A stretch of DNA of 56,776 bases. Origin: Escherichia phage Seurat. The position numbers and the translations under genes were made by a program. Shown in pieces: positions 1-56,776 of the stretch (within the stretch, counting starts at the first letter, position 1; every line of letters begins with the position of its first letter). A model generated the notes under the pieces. The model searched no databases, was not told the DNA's origin, and saw only the letters and a program-made list of their open reading frames with translations. The stretch is from the sequence record NC_027378.1, one strand, 5' to 3'.

Positions 1-1
1 T

Positions 2-163
2 AAATATCCTTTGGTTTATACAAGGGACATTATCCAACGTTTGCAGGATACAGAAACAGCTCTGACTGAATGTAAACTGAGGGTTAAGGAAATCATACGC
101 TATGAAGCTGAAAATGTTTCGCTTGATTTTGTAGGATCAAGCAATTATATTCAGCCTAAATAG
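2..163 (+). CDS. 5'-truncated ORF entering from the window start; candidate C-terminal part of the o-spanin if the genome is circular/permuted
   Basis: Open frame 2-160 with TAG at 161-163; frame is continuous with the ORF starting at 56634 across the junction 56776->1. Confidence 0.3.
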   Translation, partial: KYPLVYTRDIIQRLQDTETALTECKLRVKEIIRYEAENVSLDFVGSSNYIQPK

Positions 164-183: not shown

Positions 184-741
184 ATGAACGGGGCAAGTCA
201 AGAGCAATATGATCGTGACTGGACGAATTACATCCAGTATGCAAATAGCTTGTCCGCTGAAGAGATGGCAATACGTGACAAAGTTGTTGCTGAGTACATG
301 TTCGACTACAATTGGACTAACGCTTGCATGAGATGCGGGTTCAATGCTATGTTTGCACAGGAGCTTGGCCAACGCTTTGCCACGGACTGTTATGTTCGAT
401 GGAAGCTCAAGGAGATTGAAAGATCCCGTGTTCAACGTACTTCTGAGCAAGCTAACATTGAAGCAGACCTTGAGCGTCAGCATATCATTGAAGCATTAAA
501 ACGTGAAGCTCATTATACAGGACCGGGATCTTCTCAAGCTGCTAGAGTCGCCGCATTGGGCAAGCTTGCACAAATTTATGATTTGGATGCTCCCAAGAAG
601 GCTAAGATTGATGTTACTAACAGAGGTGGCGTAATGATAGTCCCTGCTGTAGCAAATATTGACGAATGGGAAAAAACTGCATCCGAGTCTCAACAACGAC
701 TAGTTAAAGAGACTGAAGATGGAGCTAAACCGACAACCTGA
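184..741 (+). CDS. terminase small subunit (putative)
   Basis: 185-aa ORF immediately upstream of and overlapping the large terminase; RBS AAGGGGG before the ATG; call is positional. Confidence 0.45.
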   Translation: MNGASQEQYDRDWTNYIQYANSLSAEEMAIRDKVVAEYMFDYNWTNACMRCGFNAMFAQELGQRFATDCYVRWKLKEIERSRVQRTSEQANIEADLERQHIIEALKREAHYTGPGSSQAARVAALGKLAQIYDLDAPKKAKIDVTNRGGVMIVPAVANIDEWEKTASESQQRLVKETEDGAKPTT

Positions 742-2278
742 TAACATGCCGCGAGTCGTCTGGAAACCACATCCAGGTTCACAGACACTCGCTCTATCCT
801 GCCCCGCTGATATTATCCTATACCACGGAACTCGCGGTCCTGGAAAAACGGACTGCCAGCTTATGCGTTTCCGTAAGAATGTTGGTGTAGGGTACGGTAA
901 ATTTTGGAAGGGTATTATATTCGACCGTGAATATAAAAACCTTGATGACCTTGTAACTAAATCCCAGCGTTGGTTTCCTGAATTTAAAGACGGGGCTAAA
1001 TTCCTTAGTTCTAAGTCTGATTATAAATGGGTTTGGCCTACTGGTGAAGAGCTACTGTTCCGCGTTGCTTGTAAAGAAAAGGATTACTGGTCTTATCACG
1101 GTCACGAATACCCATTTATCGGATGGAACGAATTGACAAAATATCCGGACGGGCGTTTGTTTGAAGCTATGATGTCCTGTAACCGTTCATCTTTCCTACC
1201 AGAAGATAACCCAATTATCAATCCAGATGGTACGGTTACATATTTACCGGATATCCCTCTTGAAGTGTTTGCTACCAGTAACCCGTTCGGTGCGGGGCAT
1301 AACTGGGTTAAGAAACGCTTCATTGACGCTGCACCGATGGGTAAAATACTCAGGAAGACTACGCGAGTGTTTAACCCGAGGACGCAGAAAGACGAAGATG
1401 TGGTTACGACGCAATGCCATATCTTTGGTTCGTACCGTGAAAACAAAAACCTAAGTCCAAAATATATTGCAGAACTTATGTCTATCACAGACCCGAACAA
1501 GCGTGCTGCATGGTTGGGCGGGAGCTGGGATATTACATCCGGTGGTATGTTCGATGATCTGTGGCGTAGCACTGTTCACAAAGTACGACCATTCCCGATT
1601 CCAGCGAGTTGGAAGATTACACGTTCTTTCGACTGGGGTTCTTCAAAACCGTTCTCTGTCGGTTGGTGGGCTATTAGTGATGGTTCGGATGTTGTGCGTG
1701 AAGATGGCACTACATTCTCCACGGTCCGCGGTGACCTGTTTAGGATTAACGAATGGTATGGGACCAACGGTAAAACAAACGAAGGTCTACATTTGCTGGA
1801 CTCAGAAATTGCAAGCGGTATACTGGAGCGGGAATTGGCCTGGGGTATACACGATCGTGTAGTTCCTGGTCCTGCGGATAACTCCATTTGGGATCTGGAG
1901 AACAATAACTCCACCGCTGCAACAATGGCGAAGAAAATTCGTCTTAACGGGAAGTTATACAACGGTATACATTGGAAGCGCAGTGATAAGTCTGCTGGGT
2001 CACGTAAACGAGGCTGGCAGAAAATGCGTGAGTTCCTTAAAGCTGCACTGCGGGAAGATGCGAACGGTAAACCTTTGCCCGGTCCGCGCGAGAATCCGGC
2101 AATGTACATTTTTGATAACTGCAACTATTTCTTTGAGCTGGTTCCAAGTCTACCTCGCGATGAAGTAGATCAGGACGACGTTGATACGGAATGTGAAGAC
2201 CATATGGGTGATGAAGTTCGTTATATGGTTCTGGATCAAGCTGTTTATACAGGTGTTGGCAAAACTATCGGTATTTAA
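719..2278 (+). CDS. terminase large subunit
   Basis: 519 aa; Walker A-like HGTRGPGKTD near the N-terminus; acidic nuclease-like C-terminal half; followed by the portal gene. Confidence 0.8.
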   Translation: MELNRQPDNMPRVVWKPHPGSQTLALSCPADIILYHGTRGPGKTDCQLMRFRKNVGVGYGKFWKGIIFDREYKNLDDLVTKSQRWFPEFKDGAKFLSSKSDYKWVWPTGEELLFRVACKEKDYWSYHGHEYPFIGWNELTKYPDGRLFEAMMSCNRSSFLPEDNPIINPDGTVTYLPDIPLEVFATSNPFGAGHNWVKKRFIDAAPMGKILRKTTRVFNPRTQKDEDVVTTQCHIFGSYRENKNLSPKYIAELMSITDPNKRAAWLGGSWDITSGGMFDDLWRSTVHKVRPFPIPASWKITRSFDWGSSKPFSVGWWAISDGSDVVREDGTTFSTVRGDLFRINEWYGTNGKTNEGLHLLDSEIASGILERELAWGIHDRVVPGPADNSIWDLENNNSTAATMAKKIRLNGKLYNGIHWKRSDKSAGSRKRGWQKMREFLKAALREDANGKPLPGPRENPAMYIFDNCNYFFELVPSLPRDEVDQDDVDTECEDHMGDEVRYMVLDQAVYTGVGKTIGI

Positions 2279-18809: not shown

Positions 18810-20618
18810 ATGGCAACTCGTTTACGTGGTACTTTAGTTGATGGTTTGAACAAGCCTATTATCAACGCTACAGTTGCGCTTTTAGCTAAAGGAAACAGTC
18901 TTACCGTATTATCCGGCAGCGAAGCTATCTTTAAAACAAGTGCAACCGGAACTTATGATATTACAGTCCAGACAGGTTATTACAAGGTTATTATCGGTCC
19001 ACAGGGCGTAGAGCCATATAAAGCTGGTGAAATTGCTATTTACGCGGATAGTAAAGAAGGTACGCTGAATAACTATTTAACTACATGGGCACCGGAAGAA
19101 TTAACTCCGGAAGTTATTGCTCAGGTAAAAGATTTGGTTGCACAAGCAGAGACGGCTAAGAATGCTTCAGCTTCGTCTGCTACTAAATCCGAGCAAGAAC
19201 GCGTTAAAGCAGAAGCTGCTGCTAGAAAGGCAGAAGACACTGCTAATGGTATGAAGGCGTCTATTGGTCTTAGCAATGTTCCAAGACATGTAGCAGATAT
19301 TAGTGGAAACCCTTCTGAGTTCTTAGGGTTTATACGCATATTAAGGACAACTACTGTCGGTTATCCTTCAATTGCTTCTGGTGAAACAGTATTAGCTGGT
19401 TTTGTGTCACCGATGGATGGAACTCCAGGATATACTGGTGTATTTGTTGGAGATGTGACTGGGACTTTATATACTTACCGTTGGACTTCAGTTACTGGCG
19501 CTATATGGTGGAAACATGTAAAATCAGAAACAATAGACAGATATACACAATTATCCGATTCCACTACTATTTATAATGCGTCAAAGAGCGCTACCCTTGT
19601 CATAAAAGATACTAAAACTTGGGGAGCTTGGGACAATCAAAGCTCCAAATACATACCTCTGGCAATAGCACAGGGTGGCACTGGAGGGGTTACTGACGCG
19701 GACGCTCGTACAAACTTAAAGCTTGGCGCTAACGATACCCCGCAATTCAGAAACCTTAATCTTGTTACCGTAGCGGACACGGCGCAAGCCCCTTCCGGTA
19801 TTGTAAGCGGTTATTTAAATAATAGCTCTGGAGTTCAAAGATGCCGCTACCGCATATATTCTGAAATACGCGGTGACAATAAAGCGTGGTTAACCTTACA
19901 CCTTCAATCAGACACAGCAACAAATAAATATGCTGGTCTAAGCGTTGATGGTAATTTTCAAATCAATGGAAGTTTTATCGGTAACGCTTTAAGTCTTAGT
20001 GATGTCCCTACTTCTAAAGTAAATCTTCAAATTAATAGATTTGTTCAGAACACTGGTGAAACTGATGTGGTTAACCATGCAGGGACAGCTCAAATTTTTA
20101 TCACTGATAATAAAAATTGGGGAGCTTACGATAAAGAATCAAAGCGCCATATTCCTTTGCCCATTTCACAAGGAGGTACTGGAGCGGTTACTATTGCTGA
20201 TGCTAAAACCAATCTTCAAATTCCATCTGTAGGTGGGGGTGATTGGTTAACTTATAACGCCCCTCCTGGCGTGGAAGCTGGAAAGTATTATCCCGTTATT
20301 ATTGATATGGCGTATAGTTCTTTATATGCTTCCGGCGCTTTTATAGATATAAAAACAAAATCCGCCTCTGGCGATGATCCAATGAACTGCTGCACTTTTA
20401 ACGGTTTTATCCGATGTGGTGGTTGGAGCGATCGTAAAGACTTCGCAGGGGATTTTATTAGTAAGTTTCTTGGTATGCAACCAGAGCAGCCTGTAGAAGC
20501 ACGCGAGCATATTAGCCCGTGGCCACCCATGATTGATCAGGAAGTGCTGCAACCAAAGACCGCTCAAACGGTCCCTCAGAAACCGGAGCAGAAGGTGAAA
20601 CCAAATGACGAAGAATGA
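18810..20618 (+). CDS. side tail fibre / receptor-binding protein
   Basis: Track start is GTG at 18798, reset to the ATG at 18810 (RBS GGGAGA); two internal repeats (KTWGAWDNQSSKYIPLAIAQGGTGGVT... and NKNWGAYDKESKRHIPLPISQGGTGAVT...). Confidence 0.7.
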   Translation: MATRLRGTLVDGLNKPIINATVALLAKGNSLTVLSGSEAIFKTSATGTYDITVQTGYYKVIIGPQGVEPYKAGEIAIYADSKEGTLNNYLTTWAPEELTPEVIAQVKDLVAQAETAKNASASSATKSEQERVKAEAAARKAEDTANGMKASIGLSNVPRHVADISGNPSEFLGFIRILRTTTVGYPSIASGETVLAGFVSPMDGTPGYTGVFVGDVTGTLYTYRWTSVTGAIWWKHVKSETIDRYTQLSDSTTIYNASKSATLVIKDTKTWGAWDNQSSKYIPLAIAQGGTGGVTDADARTNLKLGANDTPQFRNLNLVTVADTAQAPSGIVSGYLNNSSGVQRCRYRIYSEIRGDNKAWLTLHLQSDTATNKYAGLSVDGNFQINGSFIGNALSLSDVPTSKVNLQINRFVQNTGETDVVNHAGTAQIFITDNKNWGAYDKESKRHIPLPISQGGTGAVTIADAKTNLQIPSVGGGDWLTYNAPPGVEAGKYYPVIIDMAYSSLYASGAFIDIKTKSASGDDPMNCCTFNGFIRCGGWSDRKDFAGDFISKFLGMQPEQPVEAREHISPWPPMIDQEVLQPKTAQTVPQKPEQKVKPNDEE

Positions 20619-21111: not shown

Positions 21112-21136
21112 AAAGGGGCAAACGCCCCTTTCTTTA
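21112..21136. terminator. bidirectional intrinsic terminator between convergent blocks
   Basis: AAAGGGGC-aaac-GCCCCTTT hairpin with T-rich flanks on both strands. Confidence 0.65.
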
Positions 21137-21415
21137 ACGCTTATGAAAAGCTGACAGGATTGCAAGTGTTACAGCACCCAATCCGACGACGGTAGCATAA
21201 GTGAGTTGGTGTTGAACTTTAACAAAGCCATAATAGGTGCTAGGGATGTCTACAATCCCAAACGCCATAGCAAAGCTGGTCCCAAGCAGTGCTACAGCAA
21301 GGGCGCGTAATAACGCCCTGCTCATTGCTGTAAAGCCCTTCTCATTACTATCTCCGGTCATTATAACAACAATGATTAGAAATAGCGAAACGACAACTAA
21401 TAGATATTCCATCAT
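21134..21415 (-). CDS. small membrane protein
   Basis: 93 aa with about three hydrophobic segments. Confidence 0.45.
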   Translation of the reverse strand: MMEYLLVVVSLFLIIVVIMTGDSNEKGFTAMSRALLRALAVALLGTSFAMAFGIVDIPSTYYGFVKVQHQLTYATVVGLGAVTLAILSAFHKR

Positions 21416-21618
21416 TTGCGTCTCCTGTACATGTATTGATCATACGCAGTCGCAATAATAGTGACTGGCCAGCAAACAAGTATACATAGAAGACTCACAA
21501 TCTTCTCCCAACGTTTCTTATGAGCTAATGCATAATCATAATTATTCCAACAAAAGAAATAAGTCATTGCCGCAATGATTGCACCAATTACAAAATACAT
21601 AACCACATATTCATTCAT
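21412..21618 (-). CDS. small membrane protein (2 TM)
   Basis: 68 aa, two hydrophobic helices, basic C-terminus RRRK. Confidence 0.45.
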   Translation of the reverse strand: MNEYVVMYFVIGAIIAAMTYFFCWNNYDYALAHKKRWEKIVSLLCILVCWPVTIIATAYDQYMYRRRK

Positions 21619-21806
21619 TTAGCAAACTCCCAAATTAGATTATAATTATTGCCCGCGGGTACATAGCGCCCTGGACGTGAGTTGAAGCTTTTCACTGAAA
21701 ATTCCAGCGTTCCAGCGCTATATAGTTGTACTTTTTGCCCGTCCCACGGTCCACCAATTAGCTTAAAAGTCTGTCTGTAACCTTTTGCTGCTCTAGCCAT
21801 ATTCAC
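21615..21806 (-). CDS. hypothetical protein
   Basis: 63 aa; overlapping start/stop with neighbours. Confidence 0.4.
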   Translation of the reverse strand: MNMARAAKGYRQTFKLIGGPWDGQKVQLYSAGTLEFSVKSFNSRPGRYVPAGNNYNLIWEFAK

Positions 21807-21842
21807 TCCTTAAAATACCCGCGCGAACGCGGGTATTATTTA

Positions 21843-22049
21843 TTACGCTTCCGGTGATTCCGGAGTTGGCTCATCTGGAACAACAATAACGTCAGCTAAA
21901 ACCTTCAACGCTTCTTGCTGCTCAGCGGTCATATTATTCCAGTAATAGACGTGAATGTAAACTACTGGTTTGTCACCATGTTGCCACGGTTCGCGACTTA
22001 CTGCATCCACACCTAAATCGCTTGCTACGCTCTTTTCTTTACCAGCCAT
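21843..22049 (-). CDS. hypothetical protein
   Basis: 68 aa, acidic C-terminus. Confidence 0.4.
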   Translation of the reverse strand: MAGKEKSVASDLGVDAVSREPWQHGDKPVVYIHVYYWNNMTAEQQEALKVLADVIVVPDEPTPESPEA

Positions 22050-22081
22050 GCTAATATACCCCTTTAAGGTTTTACACGCGG

Positions 22082-22375
22082 CTAGCCCCCAAAAGTACCC
22101 CTATGATCAAGGGTTCTAATGCGCTGCTCCAGCCAACGTGCGTTCTTTTCAAAATGTTTATTGGTACGCGCTGCTTTGCACGCATCAATAATACCTAACT
22201 CACATCCAAGCTGCGTTTGTCCCATCACGTAAGAATGAGTTAACATGCTGGATACAAGGTCTTCACATTGTAACTTAATAGGATGGTCTTGGCATAGTTT
22301 CTTTGCTGCATCTTTTAAATCCACAGCTTGGACACCAGGCGCTATCAGCAAAGTTACGAGTAATAAACGTTTCAT
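22082..22375 (-). CDS. secreted (periplasmic) Cys-containing protein
   Basis: 97 aa; signal peptide MKRLLLVTLLIAPGVQA with AxA cleavage motif; four Cys in the mature part. Confidence 0.5.
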   Translation of the reverse strand: MKRLLLVTLLIAPGVQAVDLKDAAKKLCQDHPIKLQCEDLVSSMLTHSYVMGQTQLGCELGIIDACKAARTNKHFEKNARWLEQRIRTLDHRGTFGG

Positions 22376-34724: not shown

Positions 34725-35633
34725 TCAATCTTTCCCGTAATAATTAGCTACTTGATAGTTTTGACAACCAACTTTCTGTCCTTGCGTATCCACTGAGGCG
34801 GAATGGAAATTGCAATACCATGTTCCATCTTCTTTTGGCTCAAGGAATTGACATGTGCGGCAGTTTACTTCCGGCATAGTTTTACGCCAGCATAGTGAGG
34901 AGTGATCGCACCATTTACATTCGAAGAAAGTGGAATCTTTAAATGCGCGGTCCGGAATATCTGTAGCAATAGCAATCTGCACACCACGATCAATATACAT
35001 GTCCGCGGTAACAGGATCAAACGGAATAATTTCTGCGTAAACTTCATCGTCATTCTTGTTTACTGCAAGATATAACGCTGCGCCAAGACCTAGTTTTCGC
35101 ATGTACACGTTCATCTGTACATAGTGCTCAGGTTTAGCTTCTTTGACACCTTTAGCTTTCAGCTTTTTAAAAGACTTATCGTTATGCGTCTTCATTTCGG
35201 TAAGCACAGGCATCCCAGGCTGCACGTCCGGACAACCTATAACCACACCATCACAGGAACCGCCAAAGTGTCCGCCAGCTTCGCTGATACGGAACTGGTG
35301 TCCATTTTCGTCCTGCTGATAGACCTGCATACCTGCCGCAAGAAGCATAGCAATGAAACGCGCTTCTTCCAGATGTCCACGGTTAAACAGTCGAAGCTGG
35401 CGTCCGTCAAACTCTTTGCGTGTAGCCCAGCGATATCCATAGAAAAGCTTGCGTGCGCACTGTTGCCCAATAAGGGAAGCGCCTAAGTGACTGCGGTTAC
35501 CGCTTTCAGGGCGATAAGCGTCTTCAATTGTGGGAATGACTACGCCAAGATACTTACGGTAAGTCCCACCCTGATCTTTTTGCACACCGTCATTGATCGC
35601 TTGAAGTGTTTTTTCTGCAATATAAATAGCCAT
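34725..35633 (-). CDS. PD-(D/E)xK nuclease (Cas4/RecB-like exonuclease) with C-terminal Cys cluster
   Basis: D...EMK signature (SCDGVVIG...LTEMKTH); C-terminal CKWCDHSSLCW...CRTC...C. Confidence 0.55.
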   Translation of the reverse strand: MAIYIAEKTLQAINDGVQKDQGGTYRKYLGVVIPTIEDAYRPESGNRSHLGASLIGQQCARKLFYGYRWATRKEFDGRQLRLFNRGHLEEARFIAMLLAAGMQVYQQDENGHQFRISEAGGHFGGSCDGVVIGCPDVQPGMPVLTEMKTHNDKSFKKLKAKGVKEAKPEHYVQMNVYMRKLGLGAALYLAVNKNDDEVYAEIIPFDPVTADMYIDRGVQIAIATDIPDRAFKDSTFFECKWCDHSSLCWRKTMPEVNCRTCQFLEPKEDGTWYCNFHSASVDTQGQKVGCQNYQVANYYGKD

Positions 35634-41880: not shown

Positions 41881-42192
41881 CTCTTGATTGTCGGATAGCT
41901 TACTTTGACTGCCGTCTTCGTCTACCCTGGCCTACTTGTACAGCCTCGCCAAAGGCTGGTGACGGTTTGGTACATCTGGCGCCGTCTCGTTAAACATCGT
42001 TTACATCGTTCAGTAAGTTGCGGGTTTACCCTGTCCGCTCCAGGAAGCCCAGCGAAAGTAGTTGCTGTAAGGAGGTACAGCTACCGCTTTCAAGGGCTTG
42101 AGTTAAGCATCGTTCACTAAGTTAATGTTGTTAAATTGTTAAACCTCGTTAACTGTGGTTATCTTAAAGGATGCAGTCTTGAATGGCAAGCT

Positions 42193-42510
42193 TCAATTTT
42201 GCGCGGTTCCCTTTGCCGCTTTTGGTGCTAAAGTACCGTCGTCTAACATCAACTCAAAACCTGTTACTTGATCGGTTGGAACAATAGGGTAATTCATAAT
42301 AGCCATGTGGATACGATTCCCTCCGTCACATTCATCGATGTATTCATTACCCCAATAGTATAAATGCCCATCTCTTCGAATATCCATTGCTGTTGGGAAA
42401 TCTACAAGAATTCTTTTGATTTCTTTTCGTCCTTCTTTATGTAGATTAGTTTCAATACGGATAAGCTCCGCATAAATTGCTTCACAGATAGTGTTTACAA
42501 TACTCATCAT
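42193..42510 (-). CDS. hypothetical protein
   Basis: 105 aa. Confidence 0.4.
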   Translation of the reverse strand: MMSIVNTICEAIYAELIRIETNLHKEGRKEIKRILVDFPTAMDIRRDGHLYYWGNEYIDECDGGNRIHMAIMNYPIVPTDQVTGFELMLDDGTLAPKAAKGTAQN

Positions 42511-42704
42511 TTACCCCTTAAGTTTTGAATCATTCTATCACAGGCAGCTTTTACAGAAGAGTTTTGCCAGTCTTCCTCAATTTGTGAAGGTTCTTCAGGT
42601 GAATAAGCAGCACTAATCAAGCACTGATTATAACCTTCAATATAAGCCTGTTTTGCGGTATCTACTATTGATTGTAAAGCGATATTGAATAATTGTTCAG
42701 ACAT
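42507..42704 (-). CDS. hypothetical small protein
   Basis: Start reset to MSEQLFNIALQ... with RBS GAGGTG; the upstream extension in the track is unlikely. Confidence 0.4.
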   Translation of the reverse strand: MSEQLFNIALQSIVDTAKQAYIEGYNQCLISAAYSPEEPSQIEEDWQNSSVKAACDRMIQNLRGK

Positions 42705-42712
42705 TTTACACC

Positions 42713-42787
42713 TCACAAAATATACATAAACCAGAAATAACCAGCTACGAAAATAGCACCCGCAAATAATTTTAAAATCTCGAACAT
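42713..42787 (-). CDS. hydrophobic micro-protein (24 aa), not in the ORF track
   Basis: MFEILKLFAGAIFVAGYFWFMYIL preceded by RBS GGAGGG at 6 nt spacing. Confidence 0.4.
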   Translation of the reverse strand: MFEILKLFAGAIFVAGYFWFMYIL

Positions 42788-42945
42788 TGTTCCCTCCGTT
42801 AACTTTATGCTGTAAGTATAGCAGGACTTGCGATGTATACAACAACTTTAGACTTGAAATACATCTATAAAATAGCACGATTTGCCTTTACCTCTGATCC
42901 GTCTAGCTGTACTATTAACCCATAAACAGAGCGGAGGATTACAAA

Positions 42946-43170
42946 ATGGTCATGCTGAATAAAGTATATAGCACAATGAGCGCGGATTATAAAGTTGTAC
43001 GTCACCCGCGTACTGGTAAATTTGAAGCATATATCCGTCCAATGGGTGAAGGTTGGATGTATTACGGTACTTATGACGACGCTGAGCAAGCTTATGAAGA
43101 AGCGGAAAGTGCGGCGGAAGCATCCGAAATTATGGCAAGGTACGACATCGATGATTACTATCTTAACTAA
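42946..43170 (+). CDS. small acidic protein on the opposite strand within the leftward block
   Basis: 74 aa; RBS GGAGG; own terminator downstream. Confidence 0.5.
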   Translation: MVMLNKVYSTMSADYKVVRHPRTGKFEAYIRPMGEGWMYYGTYDDAEQAYEEAESAAEASEIMARYDIDDYYLN

Positions 43171-43174
43171 TAAT

Positions 43175-43199
43175 AAAGGGCCGAAAGGCCCTTTATTTA
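43175..43199. terminator. bidirectional intrinsic terminator
   Basis: AAAGGGCC-gaaa-GGCCCTTT followed by TTTATTTAT on plus, T-rich on minus. Confidence 0.6.
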
Positions 43200-45539
43200 T
43201 TCCTCTTCACCTAAGTTTGCCATAATTCCTTCAACATCTTGCGTAATGCGCCAAGCTGCCCCAGTAAATCCCAGTTTAATAGTCTCCTCCCGTGTTACCG
43301 GAACAAGTGCACCCATAGCAACCATTTCCTTGATTGTAGACTCGATTGCAGCGGACAATCCGTGATGATAGTTTTTAAACGCGGACTTACTTGCAAGACG
43401 CGTAGTAATATCACCCCGCGTGATAATACCTTCTTTGCGCAAATCTACACGTTTAACTTTGACCCAGTCTTTAGTTAGATAATTCACACAGACCTGACAC
43501 ATAGTACGGATACGAGCTTCATCGTTAGTCCCGATACCGCCGCTATGCCATTCCTTCATAATAATGTCCTGTCCATGTCGCACAAAGTCCAAAGCCCATT
43601 GCACATGATATGTCTGTACCACCGGATTGATCCAGTTTTCCCCAACTGCTAACAGGGCGGATAGACGTAACACCTTCAGGTGAGCACGGTTCCAGGGCTG
43701 ACGGATTGCTTCGTCTTTGGTTGCGTTAATATTACGGTCACATTCGTCGTTAAACTGATCACATAATGCTTCCGCTTCTGGACTAAACTGCACTTCAATA
43801 CTTTGATGCTTTGCCATTGCGACTAAGGTGTGGTTAACAAGATGGCACACCATATCACGCAAATGCTGATCCATTGTAGTCTGCTGGTTCTTGTTTAAAG
43901 GTGGTCGATCACCTTCATAGCGGACAACATGGAAACGGGATAAGAATCCATCCTCCATCATTTCACGGGTTAACGCTTCAAAAAACGTGTCCGGTGTTGT
44001 TTCGCCCATGATGCTATAGGCCACACCTTGTTGAGCTTCCGTATTATTAGCCTTATCAGAATAAGACATACCACCAACAATAGACATCTGACCGGACTTT
44101 TGATAAACATCGGTAAGATCATTCTTGAAGCTTTGCATCGGTGAACCTGCTGGCGCCGTAGCCATTGCTTTAATAATCTTACCAAACTCACCGTTCAAGT
44201 TGATAAAAGATTGTTTGTCTGCAAAAGATTTACGCAGTGCGGAGCCGGAAGCGCATCGGTCAAATGATACAAAGCTATGAATCTGCGGAAACGGTTCCTG
44301 AAGCTGGCTAACTATATTAGATAGACCACTGTTCAACGTTTCTTTACCAACACCAGAACGAGCAATAAGGACAAAATATCCATTAAGACCGGATTGAGGA
44401 ATCTGCCAAACCTTCCCGCATACGCCAGCCATAAATCCTAGTGCTGTCACAATAGAAATTTCTTTCACTGGTCGGACGGATGCCTTGTAGATGTACTTCG
44501 CAAGCTCCCCAGCAAGTCCCGGCGGCCAGTCAATGGCGGTTGCATCAATAGACGTACTTTCTGCAACTACGGTCTGCCCCTGTGTTGTTTCAACAGTTAC
44601 GGGCATTTCCGCTACCTGTTGCATTGCACTGTGTGCCGCTTGCATACGGGCAGCATAATCCCGCGCCAGCGCCGCTACGTTTTCCTGGGCAATGCGCTCA
44701 CGCTCCATGCGACCGCGACACATACGCAAGCAACGGTCAATATGAACATTGTTCTTATTAGCCTTCTCACGTTTGCCCAGTGCGCTATAACGGAACAGAC
44801 GACGACATTGCTCATTACTTTCCGTGTAAAATGCATACATAGAAATAAGGGCAAGGTCTGCTTCAGACTGGGAAGGGAATCCCATTTCAACCCATTCACC
44901 ATTGAATAGGCGTGCATACTTATCTCCGTTGTCCGCTTCAAGTGCACGCTGGTGAATAGTTGCATCGTCTTCTACCGGATCTTTTTCTACCAGTTCAATT
45001 TCATATGTCTTGCGCTGAAGATCAATTTCATTCACAAGCATAGTAAGATAATGATCGCGTTCGGCAACTGGTTTGTTATAGACAGGATTACCCGTGCAGA
45101 TAATAAAACGCTCCTGACTATAAACTTCGACACCATCACGTCGGCGACCTTTACCGATGTTTCCTCTTAACCACAGGTGAACGCCCAAGCCTGAGCGACT
45201 TACTTCGGTGTAAGTGTCGAACGCAGTCATGATCTGTTCGAAGCGACGCAATTGCTCCGGCGTAGTGTGCTTCTTGGGGTCCGGTTCATTGGTTGCGTTC
45301 TTCACATCCAGGTCGATGCAGGTGAACGGGTCTTGTGCAGTAAGCACGAAGCCAATATAAGGTTTATTGAAATGAGCGGCGCAACCTTTGGCAGCTTCAA
45401 ACGTCATAAGCATATCCGGATCGGTAACGTCCGCCGCCATCAAACGTCCAATATCGTTATCCCATACGAGCGGCTTTTTGTCCGTATCGGCGACAGCCCA
45501 TTGTGGGAAAGCTTTAATTTCAGCGGGAAACAGTTCCAT
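43197..45539 (-). CDS. DNA primase-polymerase (AEP-type) fused to a C-terminal helicase/NTPase
   Basis: N-terminal FTCIDLDV and SGLGVHLW primase motifs; PriCT-like SEADLALISMYAFYTE; Walker A LIARSGVGKET. Confidence 0.75.
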   Translation of the reverse strand: MELFPAEIKAFPQWAVADTDKKPLVWDNDIGRLMAADVTDPDMLMTFEAAKGCAAHFNKPYIGFVLTAQDPFTCIDLDVKNATNEPDPKKHTTPEQLRRFEQIMTAFDTYTEVSRSGLGVHLWLRGNIGKGRRRDGVEVYSQERFIICTGNPVYNKPVAERDHYLTMLVNEIDLQRKTYEIELVEKDPVEDDATIHQRALEADNGDKYARLFNGEWVEMGFPSQSEADLALISMYAFYTESNEQCRRLFRYSALGKREKANKNNVHIDRCLRMCRGRMERERIAQENVAALARDYAARMQAAHSAMQQVAEMPVTVETTQGQTVVAESTSIDATAIDWPPGLAGELAKYIYKASVRPVKEISIVTALGFMAGVCGKVWQIPQSGLNGYFVLIARSGVGKETLNSGLSNIVSQLQEPFPQIHSFVSFDRCASGSALRKSFADKQSFINLNGEFGKIIKAMATAPAGSPMQSFKNDLTDVYQKSGQMSIVGGMSYSDKANNTEAQQGVAYSIMGETTPDTFFEALTREMMEDGFLSRFHVVRYEGDRPPLNKNQQTTMDQHLRDMVCHLVNHTLVAMAKHQSIEVQFSPEAEALCDQFNDECDRNINATKDEAIRQPWNRAHLKVLRLSALLAVGENWINPVVQTYHVQWALDFVRHGQDIIMKEWHSGGIGTNDEARIRTMCQVCVNYLTKDWVKVKRVDLRKEGIITRGDITTRLASKSAFKNYHHGLSAAIESTIKEMVAMGALVPVTREETIKLGFTGAAWRITQDVEGIMANLGEEE

Positions 45540-55418: not shown

Positions 55419-55500
55419 TCTCCTTAGATCAATTCTCCTTGCGCCGTATCAAGTTTCTCTGTTACCCTTGAGTGGTTCATGTCAAGCGGAGGAACTCGAT

Positions 55501-55938
55501 ATGGCACTTCAACCTCGTGGTATTCGTAATAACAATCCAGGCAATATTCGCTGGGGTGATAATTGGCAGGGCTTAGTTCCTGCTGATAAGCGAACCGATA
55601 AATCTTTTGCTCAATTCACGCAACCGATTTACGGCATTCGTGCGCTAGCGAAAATCCTGACAAACTACACCAAACGTGAAGGCTTACCCAATGTGGGTAA
55701 GAAAAACATCGACACTGTACGTGAAATTATCGCTCGCTGGGCACCGCCTAACGAAAACGATACGGAAGCGTATATTCGCTCTGTTGCCAAAGCAATTGGT
55801 GTTCAACCTAACGATCCAATTAATGTCTTCGACAAGGCAATTATGTCAGGATTGGTGAAAGCAATCATTCGTCATGAAAATGGCATGATGCCCTATACCG
55901 ACGACGTAATTAACCGCGCTATTGCAATGGTACTTTAA
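55501..55938 (+). CDS. hypothetical protein, positional candidate endolysin
   Basis: Start reset to the ATG at 55501 (RBS GGAGG); lies between holin-like and spanin genes; no catalytic motif recognised. Confidence 0.35.
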   Translation: MALQPRGIRNNNPGNIRWGDNWQGLVPADKRTDKSFAQFTQPIYGIRALAKILTNYTKREGLPNVGKKNIDTVREIIARWAPPNENDTEAYIRSVAKAIGVQPNDPINVFDKAIMSGLVKAIIRHENGMMPYTDDVINRAIAMVL

Positions 55939-55974
55939 CTGACGGGGCGTTAGCCCCTTTTATTTGGAGGGAAC

Positions 55975-56319
55975 ATGTTCAATTCACCCAACGAACATTG
56001 GGCAGTTCTAGCGGGGTTTGCGTTTATCTCCCTCATTGGGGGAGCTCTCGGTTATGTCATGCGTACAATAGACGCTGGTAAGAAAGTACGGGCAAGCATT
56101 GCATTTCTTGAAGGCTTATCCGCCGCTTTCTTTGGCGTTATAATGTATGCGATCTACAGGGAGTTTAACATCAGCCTTTGGTTCGCTTTTGGCCTTGCTG
56201 GCCTATTTGCTTGGGCAGGTTCACGTGCTACGCTAAAAGCCCTAACGTCGCTTATAGCTTCACGGACAGGGATCAAACTCGATTCAGGGGACTGCAAACA
56301 TGAAAACGATTCTAAATAA
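55975..56319 (+). CDS. membrane protein (3 TM), holin-like
   Basis: 114 aa; three hydrophobic helices; RBS GGAGGG; just upstream of the spanins. Confidence 0.45.
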   Translation: MFNSPNEHWAVLAGFAFISLIGGALGYVMRTIDAGKKVRASIAFLEGLSAAFFGVIMYAIYREFNISLWFAFGLAGLFAWAGSRATLKALTSLIASRTGIKLDSGDCKHENDSK

Positions 56320-56776
56320 CTTCTTCGGTTTTATAAAAACTAAACCGCGTCTGTTTATCGAGTATTTGATGATCGGCGCGGTTGTGTTTTTATGCGGGGT
56401 GGCTGCATACTTGTGGTCACAGAACGAGCTTAGCAAAACTAATTTAAATCATGCTGAGCAAAGACTAACTGTTGTAGAACAGGACAATGCAAAGCTGGGC
56501 GAAGCTGTTGTATTTCTTGCATCCCAACGGGAGAAGGATACTGAATCCTATCGAAAATTGGCTTCAGCAATTGAAAGTGAGCAACATAACCACAGGTTGC
56601 TTCAGGACAAATTAAAAGCACTGGAGAAAAGCAATGCCGACGTCAAAGCTTATCTTAATGAGCGTGTTCCTGATGATTTGCGCAGGCTGCTCGACGGAGA
56701 TACAACCTCCACCACCGCCGCAGATAGTGAAGATAAAACTTCCGGCTCATCTGTTGGTAGAATGTCGGGAAGTTGA
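56300..56776 (+). CDS. i-spanin (Rz-like)
   Basis: N-terminal TM helix then charged coiled-coil periplasmic domain; embedded +1 frame lipoprotein ORF. Confidence 0.65.
   Translation: MKTILNNFFGFIKTKPRLFIEYLMIGAVVFLCGVAAYLWSQNELSKTNLNHAEQRLTVVEQDNAKLGEAVVFLASQREKDTESYRKLASAIESEQHNHRLLQDKLKALEKSNADVKAYLNERVPDDLRRLLDGDTTSTTAADSEDKTSGSSVGRMSGS
56634..56776 (+). CDS. o-spanin (Rz1-like lipoprotein), 3'-truncated at the window end
   Basis: +1 frame inside the i-spanin gene; MPTSKLILMSVFLMICAGCST signal/lipobox-like start then PPPPPQ; no stop before the window end. Confidence 0.55.
   Translation, partial: MPTSKLILMSVFLMICAGCSTEIQPPPPPQIVKIKLPAHLLVECREV

Follow-up and report, generated by a model that had tools for sequence, protein, structure and literature searches.

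The closest described counterparts of the gene pair considered here are LysB and LysC of phage P2 (Pfam PF23793; the 'P2' family of SpaninDB, Kongari et al. 2018), in which the gene for the outer-membrane subunit, the o-spanin, has its start codon, in +1, within the gene for the inner-membrane subunit, the i-spanin, and ends past the stop codon of the latter. The Rz/Rz1 pair of phage lambda is of the same class, an inner-membrane subunit being combined with an outer-membrane lipoprotein that is read in the +1 frame at the end of the lysis cassette, and Rz1 is fully embedded in Rz. [quoted passage not shown] The pair described here lies at the two ends of the sequence record of Escherichia phage Seurat (NC_027378.1), which was analysed over its full length of 56,776 bp (44.58% GC) and is called the window below; all coordinates are those of the window, and all genes named lie on its + strand.

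Like its P2 counterparts, the Seurat o-spanin gene is overlapped, being read in +1 from a start within the i-spanin gene to a stop that lies beyond the i-spanin stop. Its product also shares with the P2 family a match to the LysC profile above the curated threshold, a lipobox of the form xCAG^C-(S/T)(S/T) with cysteine at -3 (^ marking the predicted cleavage site), a proline-containing linker before the first conserved cysteine and a second conserved cysteine in a C-terminal helix-like segment, while in the related phage CAjan a LysB domain was noted by the depositors in the i-spanin, as in P2. The differences are nevertheless appreciable. Identity to the P2-family member is only ~28%, the Seurat o-spanin has two periplasmic cysteines as against four in the P2-family example, and its 16-residue C-terminal tail (NVSLDFVGSSNYIQPK), missing in STP-SP5 and yong3, lies outside the LysC profile. 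Moreover, Seurat is a virulent siphovirus of the Queuovirinae, whereas P2-like phages are temperate myoviruses.

With lambda Rz1 the Seurat o-spanin has in common a penta-proline stretch, which in Rz1 is mutationally sensitive, but in lambda both subunits carry cysteines, whereas in Seurat the periplasmic ones are confined to the o-spanin, and no sequence-family match of the Seurat o-spanin to Rz1 was found. With two periplasmic cysteines in the o-spanin but none in its partner, Seurat rather resembles T4 PseT.3/PseT.2, although the T4 genes are separated where those of Seurat overlap and no sequence similarity was detected between the two systems.

The reading frame at the record ends

The window closes with a lysis cassette and opens with the terminase genes. 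The endolysin (146 aa, 55498..55938; PHROG 873 endolysin, 3e-63), called endolysin also in slur01, CAjan and the BASEL phages, is followed by a holin of 114 aa (55975..56319; Pfam PF16083 Phage_holin_3_3, 39.8 bits against a cut-off of 28.4; PHROG 785) with two hydrophobic segments by hydropathy, and by the i-spanin of 158 aa (56300..56776; PHROG 89 'Rz-like spanin', 1.4e-11; an exact match to AIW03951.1, CPT_Seurat88), for which hydropathy indicates a single N-terminal transmembrane segment at about residues 16-41 and whose TGA (56774-56776) forms the last three bases of the window. At the other end lie the genes for the small terminase subunit, terS (184..741; PHROG 5334, 1.2e-59; an exact match to AIW03864.1, CDS 1 of Seurat), and the large subunit, TerL (719..2278; an exact match to AIW03865.1). 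The order endolysin, holin, i-spanin, o-spanin and then terS is common to the relatives.

An ATG at 56634-56636, inside the i-spanin gene, opens the o-spanin frame, which begins with MPTSKLILMSVFLMICAGCSTEIQPPPPPQ and by direct reading and translation lies in +1 relative to the i-spanin frame (56634 - 56300 = 334 = 3 x 111 + 1); a Shine-Dalgarno-like GGAG (56623..56626) stands 7 nt 5' of it. The encoded N-terminus, MPTSKLILMSVFLMICAGC, contains Lys5, a hydrophobic core, Cys16 and Cys19, and further on codons 25-30 read PPPPPQ, the five prolines (residues 25-29) being encoded at 56706-56720. Within the window this frame meets no stop, its 5' part (56634..56776) comprising codons 1-47 and two bases of codon 48. 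It had been proposed in the initial annotation, from the letters of this stretch, that the two leftover bases together with base 1 preserve the frame, and both this proposal and the preceding description of a +1-frame ORF without a stop before the window end hold in the translated sequence: GA (56775-56776) and T (base 1) give GAT, Asp48, after which 53 codons (49-101) lead to a TAG at 161-163, leaving 20 nt before the terS ATG. The 3' part thus occupies 1..163, and the gene model is join(56634..56776,1..163), coding for 101 aa. The two spanin genes share 143 nt and the o-spanin gene extends 163 nt beyond the i-spanin TGA, an overlapped architecture of the P2 lysB/lysC type, in which the partner gene codes for a protein with an N-terminal transmembrane segment.

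In the remaining two + frames, which close at the junction, 0 and 26 codons are open. On the opposite strand an open frame of 85 codons also crosses the junction, its sole listed ORF being one of 31 aa at 56655-56750; this frame was set aside as the shadow that a coding frame usually casts on the antisense strand. As for signals around the genes, a terminator-like hairpin at 55944-55965 (GGGGCGTTAGCCCC then TTTTATTT) lies within the lysis cassette, in the gap that separates the stop of the endolysin gene from the start of the holin gene, and the equivalent site was detected in slur01 as well. In the contiguous slur01 region a promoter scan gave no promoter-like excess (2 found against 2.5 expected) and a terminator scan yielded just a weak hairpin within the 3' end of the o-spanin gene, so that nothing points to a regulatory boundary separating the o-spanin gene from terS.

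The circular map and its opening point

The reading that we favour, with a probability of roughly 0.93, is that the window is the Seurat genome with a circular map, opened upstream of terS after the i-spanin stop and thereby inside an uncalled, overlapping o-spanin gene. That the window is a complete, circularly permuted or circularised genome had been put forward initially, and the comparison with other records bears this out. When the last 600 and the first 600 nt are joined, the resulting 1200 nt align at 100% coverage and in one ungapped piece to 14 records, for example to slur01 21121-22320 at 99.6%. The nearest records to the window are those of Seuratvirus phages (Queuovirinae), up to 97% identical, and relative to slur01 the window is a pure rotation, 1-35331 corresponding to slur01 21721-61235 and 35205-56776 to slur01 1-21720, with differences limited to indels, among them HNH endonuclease genes and a portion of the tail-fibre region. 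[quoted passage not shown]

Two features of the slur01 comparison may be mentioned separately. The stretches of slur01 that are absent from the window, 19624-20422 and 60112-60620 (HNH endonuclease genes) together with ~3.1 kb of the tail-fibre region (42163-45290), explain much of the 4.5-kb difference in size. Furthermore, window 35205-35331 has a counterpart at each end of slur01 (NC_028831.1), in its last as well as in its first ~127 nt; this 127-nt duplication of the record ends is probably an assembler k-mer leftover of circularisation.

[quoted passage not shown] Since the relatives are opened elsewhere and the cut coincides with the stop of the last called gene, we take 56776/1 to be an editorial choice and not a physical end, in agreement with the Seurat genome paper, according to which the opening at terS is arbitrary and was chosen for annotation. 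It could be held instead that these are the true ends of the virion DNA, formed by cos or by defined terminal repeats, and that the gene is split in the virion and rejoined on circularisation or concatemer formation; in favour of this, the lysis cassette adjoins terS as it does in lambda, where cos sits between the lysis and the terminase genes. We consider this very improbable in view of the published PCR across the ends and the scattered opening points of the relatives, of a cut that matches an annotated stop codon to the base, and of the TerL comparison in the Seurat genome paper, which groups the protein with the pac-headful terminases. Likewise, the window has no terminal repeat of its own in the alignment with slur01, the relative OddieOddie is described as 'circularized upon assembly', and the record of yong3 is flagged circular.

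Under the favoured reading of an arbitrarily opened circular map, the TerL comparison of the genome paper and the circularising assemblies suggest pac-headful packaging of circularly permuted virion DNA, although assemblies would likewise circularise if the genome had a short direct terminal repeat at some other place. In our searches TerL gave a partial match to the T4-type Pfam family Terminase_6N at 26.6 bits and a match to PHROG 2, whereas a PDB sequence search with TerL returned no match; the comparative-genomics paper on Seuratvirus is silent on termini and lysis genes.

Family, selection and gene models in relatives

The joined product, which had initially been put at about 101 aa, matches the Pfam profile LysC (PF23793, 'Rz1-like lysis system protein') at 46.1 bits (E = 4.7e-12; gathering score 27 bits), in a single alignment that places residues 14-85 on profile positions 1-68 of 69 and passes across the junction. 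Taken alone, the halves before and after the junction remain sub-threshold, at 22.7 bits (E = 9e-5, LysC positions 1-29) and 17.8 bits (positions 39-68), and hit complementary parts of the profile. The protein also matches PHROG 456, 'Rz-like spanin' (3.5e-14), and in BLASTP a P2-family o-spanin of SpaninDB (E = 1e-5), the motif LM(I/L)CAGC and both downstream cysteines being aligned across the junction.

Alignment of the joined protein to its relatives, which had been suggested as a check, gave a consistent picture. By tblastn the uninterrupted 101-aa ORF is present and 100% identical in 12 other phage records, and 89-99% identical in ~19 more. An alignment of ten homologues, down to ~30% identity, includes proteins from phages of Hafnia, Aminobacter and Stenotrophomonas, three metagenomic proteins and one P2-family o-spanin; in it Cys19, Pro37, Cys44 (56763-56765) and Cys72 (71-73), that is, residues on both sides of the junction, are invariant, and Thr55, Asp57 and Val76, all encoded in the 3' part, almost so. 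Selection acts in the same sense: in the o-spanin frame pN/pS reaches 0.16-0.24 before the junction and 0.12 after it, against ~0.8-1.4, or stops, in other frames, the comparators being the ~10%-diverged CSP1C, phiG7, SD04 and SA126VB, which, as members of one clade, count as roughly a single independent comparison. Within the 143-nt overlap the i-spanin frame, which here specifies the C-terminal ~47 residues, has a pN/pS of about 1 (~0.8-1.1), so that this last portion of the i-spanin looks unconstrained, in agreement with the report of Kongari et al. that i-spanins diverge in their overlap-encoded tail.

Protein databases return few relatives. When representative proteins were searched exhaustively by HMMER with the o-spanin as query, 6 matches were obtained in total, presumably because overlapped o-spanin genes are rarely called, and a word-indexed protein search gave 4 near-identical ones. 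One of the HMMER matches (P0005) is to a 1526-aa protein of tandem ~57-residue repeats, in which o-spanin residues 14-71 are matched weakly 12 times (overall E = 1.7e-15); as a homologue it was rejected, the match being probably a spurious one on a translated repeat array.

The annotation of this gene in the relatives is uneven. In CAjan, Greed and the BASEL phages the deposited model has 61 aa and starts at the TTG at 56754 (codon 41), the BASEL models being labelled 'o-spanin'; in CSP1C (where it is named 'spanin'), phiG7 and OddieOddie it has 50 aa and starts at the TTG at 11; the KS_ phages have the full-length ORF under the name 'hypothetical protein'; and in slur01, SD04, SA126VB, yong3 and STP-SP5 the gene is without any annotation. 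The BASEL Seuratvirus 'o-spanin', for example that of GottfriedDienst (QXV79607.1, 61 aa), lies at the same locus and in the same frame and is 100% identical over the shared 60 residues, but its start at the internal TTG leaves it without signal peptide and lipobox, whereas the 101-aa model fits the function of a lipoprotein. The record of Skure (MK672798.1) also splits the o-spanin ORF, ending after codon 71, with its base 1 at window position 72.

Given that gene callers picked such short forms independently in several records, one of them, the 61-aa or the 50-aa form, might be taken for the true product and the signal-peptide-like part for a mere open frame. We give this little credence. 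Neither form has the signal peptide and lipobox that an outer-membrane lipoprotein needs. The upstream part is moreover under purifying selection in the o-spanin frame and is recognised on its own by the LysC profile, whose match starts at residue 14. In phages of Hafnia, Aminobacter and Stenotrophomonas both the signal peptide and Cys19 are kept. Similarly, the GGAG precedes the ATG at 56634 and no motif of this kind is found at either TTG, and the short models fit the bias of gene callers against overlapped o-spanin genes and their starts that is described by Kongari et al. With regard to the start of the full-length protein, Met9 is replaced by Thr in the CSP1C clade, and hence the conserved start is Met1 and not the second ATG.

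Finally, the frame might stay open by coincidence over two unrelated pieces, a 53-codon stop-free run having a chance of ~6.5% (P ~0.065 from the stop-trinucleotide frequency of the window) and being found at 20% of + strand positions, which makes the open frame by itself weak evidence, but this is refuted by the 14 ungapped records of the junction, the 12 identical ORFs, the single LysC alignment with its complementary halves and the same-frame selection on both sides, and we attach practically no weight to it.

In the Seurat record itself the gene appears to be unannotated, to judge from the span of its accessions, AIW03864 (terS, CDS 1) to AIW03951 (i-spanin, CDS 88) being exactly 88 consecutive numbers; an exact look-up of the 101-, 61- and 50-aa forms of the ORF found none under a Seurat accession, and neither Seurat nor CAjan is listed in the part of the SpaninDB supplements available to us. 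The o-spanin appears to have been missed because the opening point of the record cuts the gene and because gene callers overlook overlapped genes. Genes of this kind, their family and the topology of the genome were known before, and what is described here is an ordinary gene together with a record-keeping artefact. The value of the result is therefore mainly curatorial: the type phage of Seuratvirus is apparently without an o-spanin in public annotation, and in the relatives examined the models are truncated, even where the label 'o-spanin' or 'spanin' is used, or else unnamed or missing. Those who catalogue lysis cassettes, or would claim that a phage has no spanin, are misled by the present records, and linearisation 'after the last gene' can split uncalled overlapping genes. 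Knowledge of spanins and of phage packaging is unchanged, the only new content being the correction of the annotation.

Predicted maturation and function of the o-spanin

The N-terminus of the o-spanin has the make-up of a lipoprotein signal peptide (codons 1-18), with Lys5 and, by hydropathy, a hydrophobic core at residues 5-21, followed by the predicted acylated Cys19 (56688-56690), which is invariant in the ten homologues. The lipobox, ICAG^C, has cysteine at -3 and fails both the consensus [LVI][ASTVI][GAS]C and PROSITE PS51257 when these are applied as regular expressions. However, the general consensus is not strict: Kongari et al. list deviant o-spanin lipoboxes, one of which (AWAC) has been validated, and SpaninDB gives an 'LCAG' lipobox for P2-family o-spanins in 7 entries, such as ...CLMLCAG^CTSAPP; no experiment on the xCAG^C box was found. 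Since family homologues with more usual boxes (LSAC in P0009, LCAC in P0007) align their cysteine to the column of Cys19, this residue is the predicted site of acylation.

Cysteine at -3 creates a C16-x-x-C19 pair that straddles the predicted signal peptidase II site and recurs in the o-spanins of Seuratvirus, of the Aminobacter and Stenotrophomonas phages and of the P2 family. Such a pair could conceivably be a functional motif, for instance an alternative site of acylation or a redox checkpoint in the maturation of the o-spanin, as opposed to a tolerated variant of the lipobox, but on the aligned sequences we rate the former as very unlikely. The cysteine at -3 is missing from some family members (P0009), and an essential role is accordingly disfavoured.

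For the function of the pair we follow the homology to P2 LysB/LysC and lambda Rz/Rz1, on which lipidation, localisation, complex formation and fusion are all modelled. The pre-protein would be exported, Cys19 would be diacylglyceryl-modified and signal peptidase II would cleave after Gly18, releasing a mature lipoprotein of 82 residues with the N-terminus Cys-Ser-Thr. By the '+2 rule', established for Lol sorting in E. coli, Ser in place of Asp at +2 predicts that this lipoprotein goes to the inner leaflet of the outer membrane. There it would bind the long, helical periplasmic domain of the inner-membrane i-spanin, and once holin and endolysin have removed the peptidoglycan the spanin complex would fuse the inner and outer membranes, completing lysis.

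The invariant Cys44 and Cys72, the periplasmic cysteines of the o-spanin, probably form stabilising disulfides, which are assigned to this subunit because the i-spanin has no periplasmic cysteine, its lone one (Cys32) sitting in the transmembrane segment. In the survey of Kongari et al. this distribution, two periplasmic cysteines in one subunit and none in the i-spanin, occurs more often than any other, and disulfide-linked homodimers are argued there to be general for two-component spanins. As regards the linker, the PPPPP stretch is present in the Seurat o-spanin, but only Pro37 is invariant in the family.

The neighbouring endolysin has some peculiarities of its own. No Pfam match at E < 0.1 was found for the gene at 55498-55938, its match to PHROG 873 involves only an internal segment of that profile (351-487 of 1277 positions), and there are further matches to PHROGs that bear the names tail injection transglycosylase and tape measure protein; on these profile matches the endolysin looks like a stand-alone form of a lytic domain that otherwise occurs in large virion proteins. 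Product names in this region are also displaced in some records: in yong3 the endolysin homologue is labelled 'capsid protein', and in CSP1C the holin gene bears the name 'endolysin', the i-spanin gene the name 'holin' and the 50-aa o-spanin fragment the name 'spanin'.
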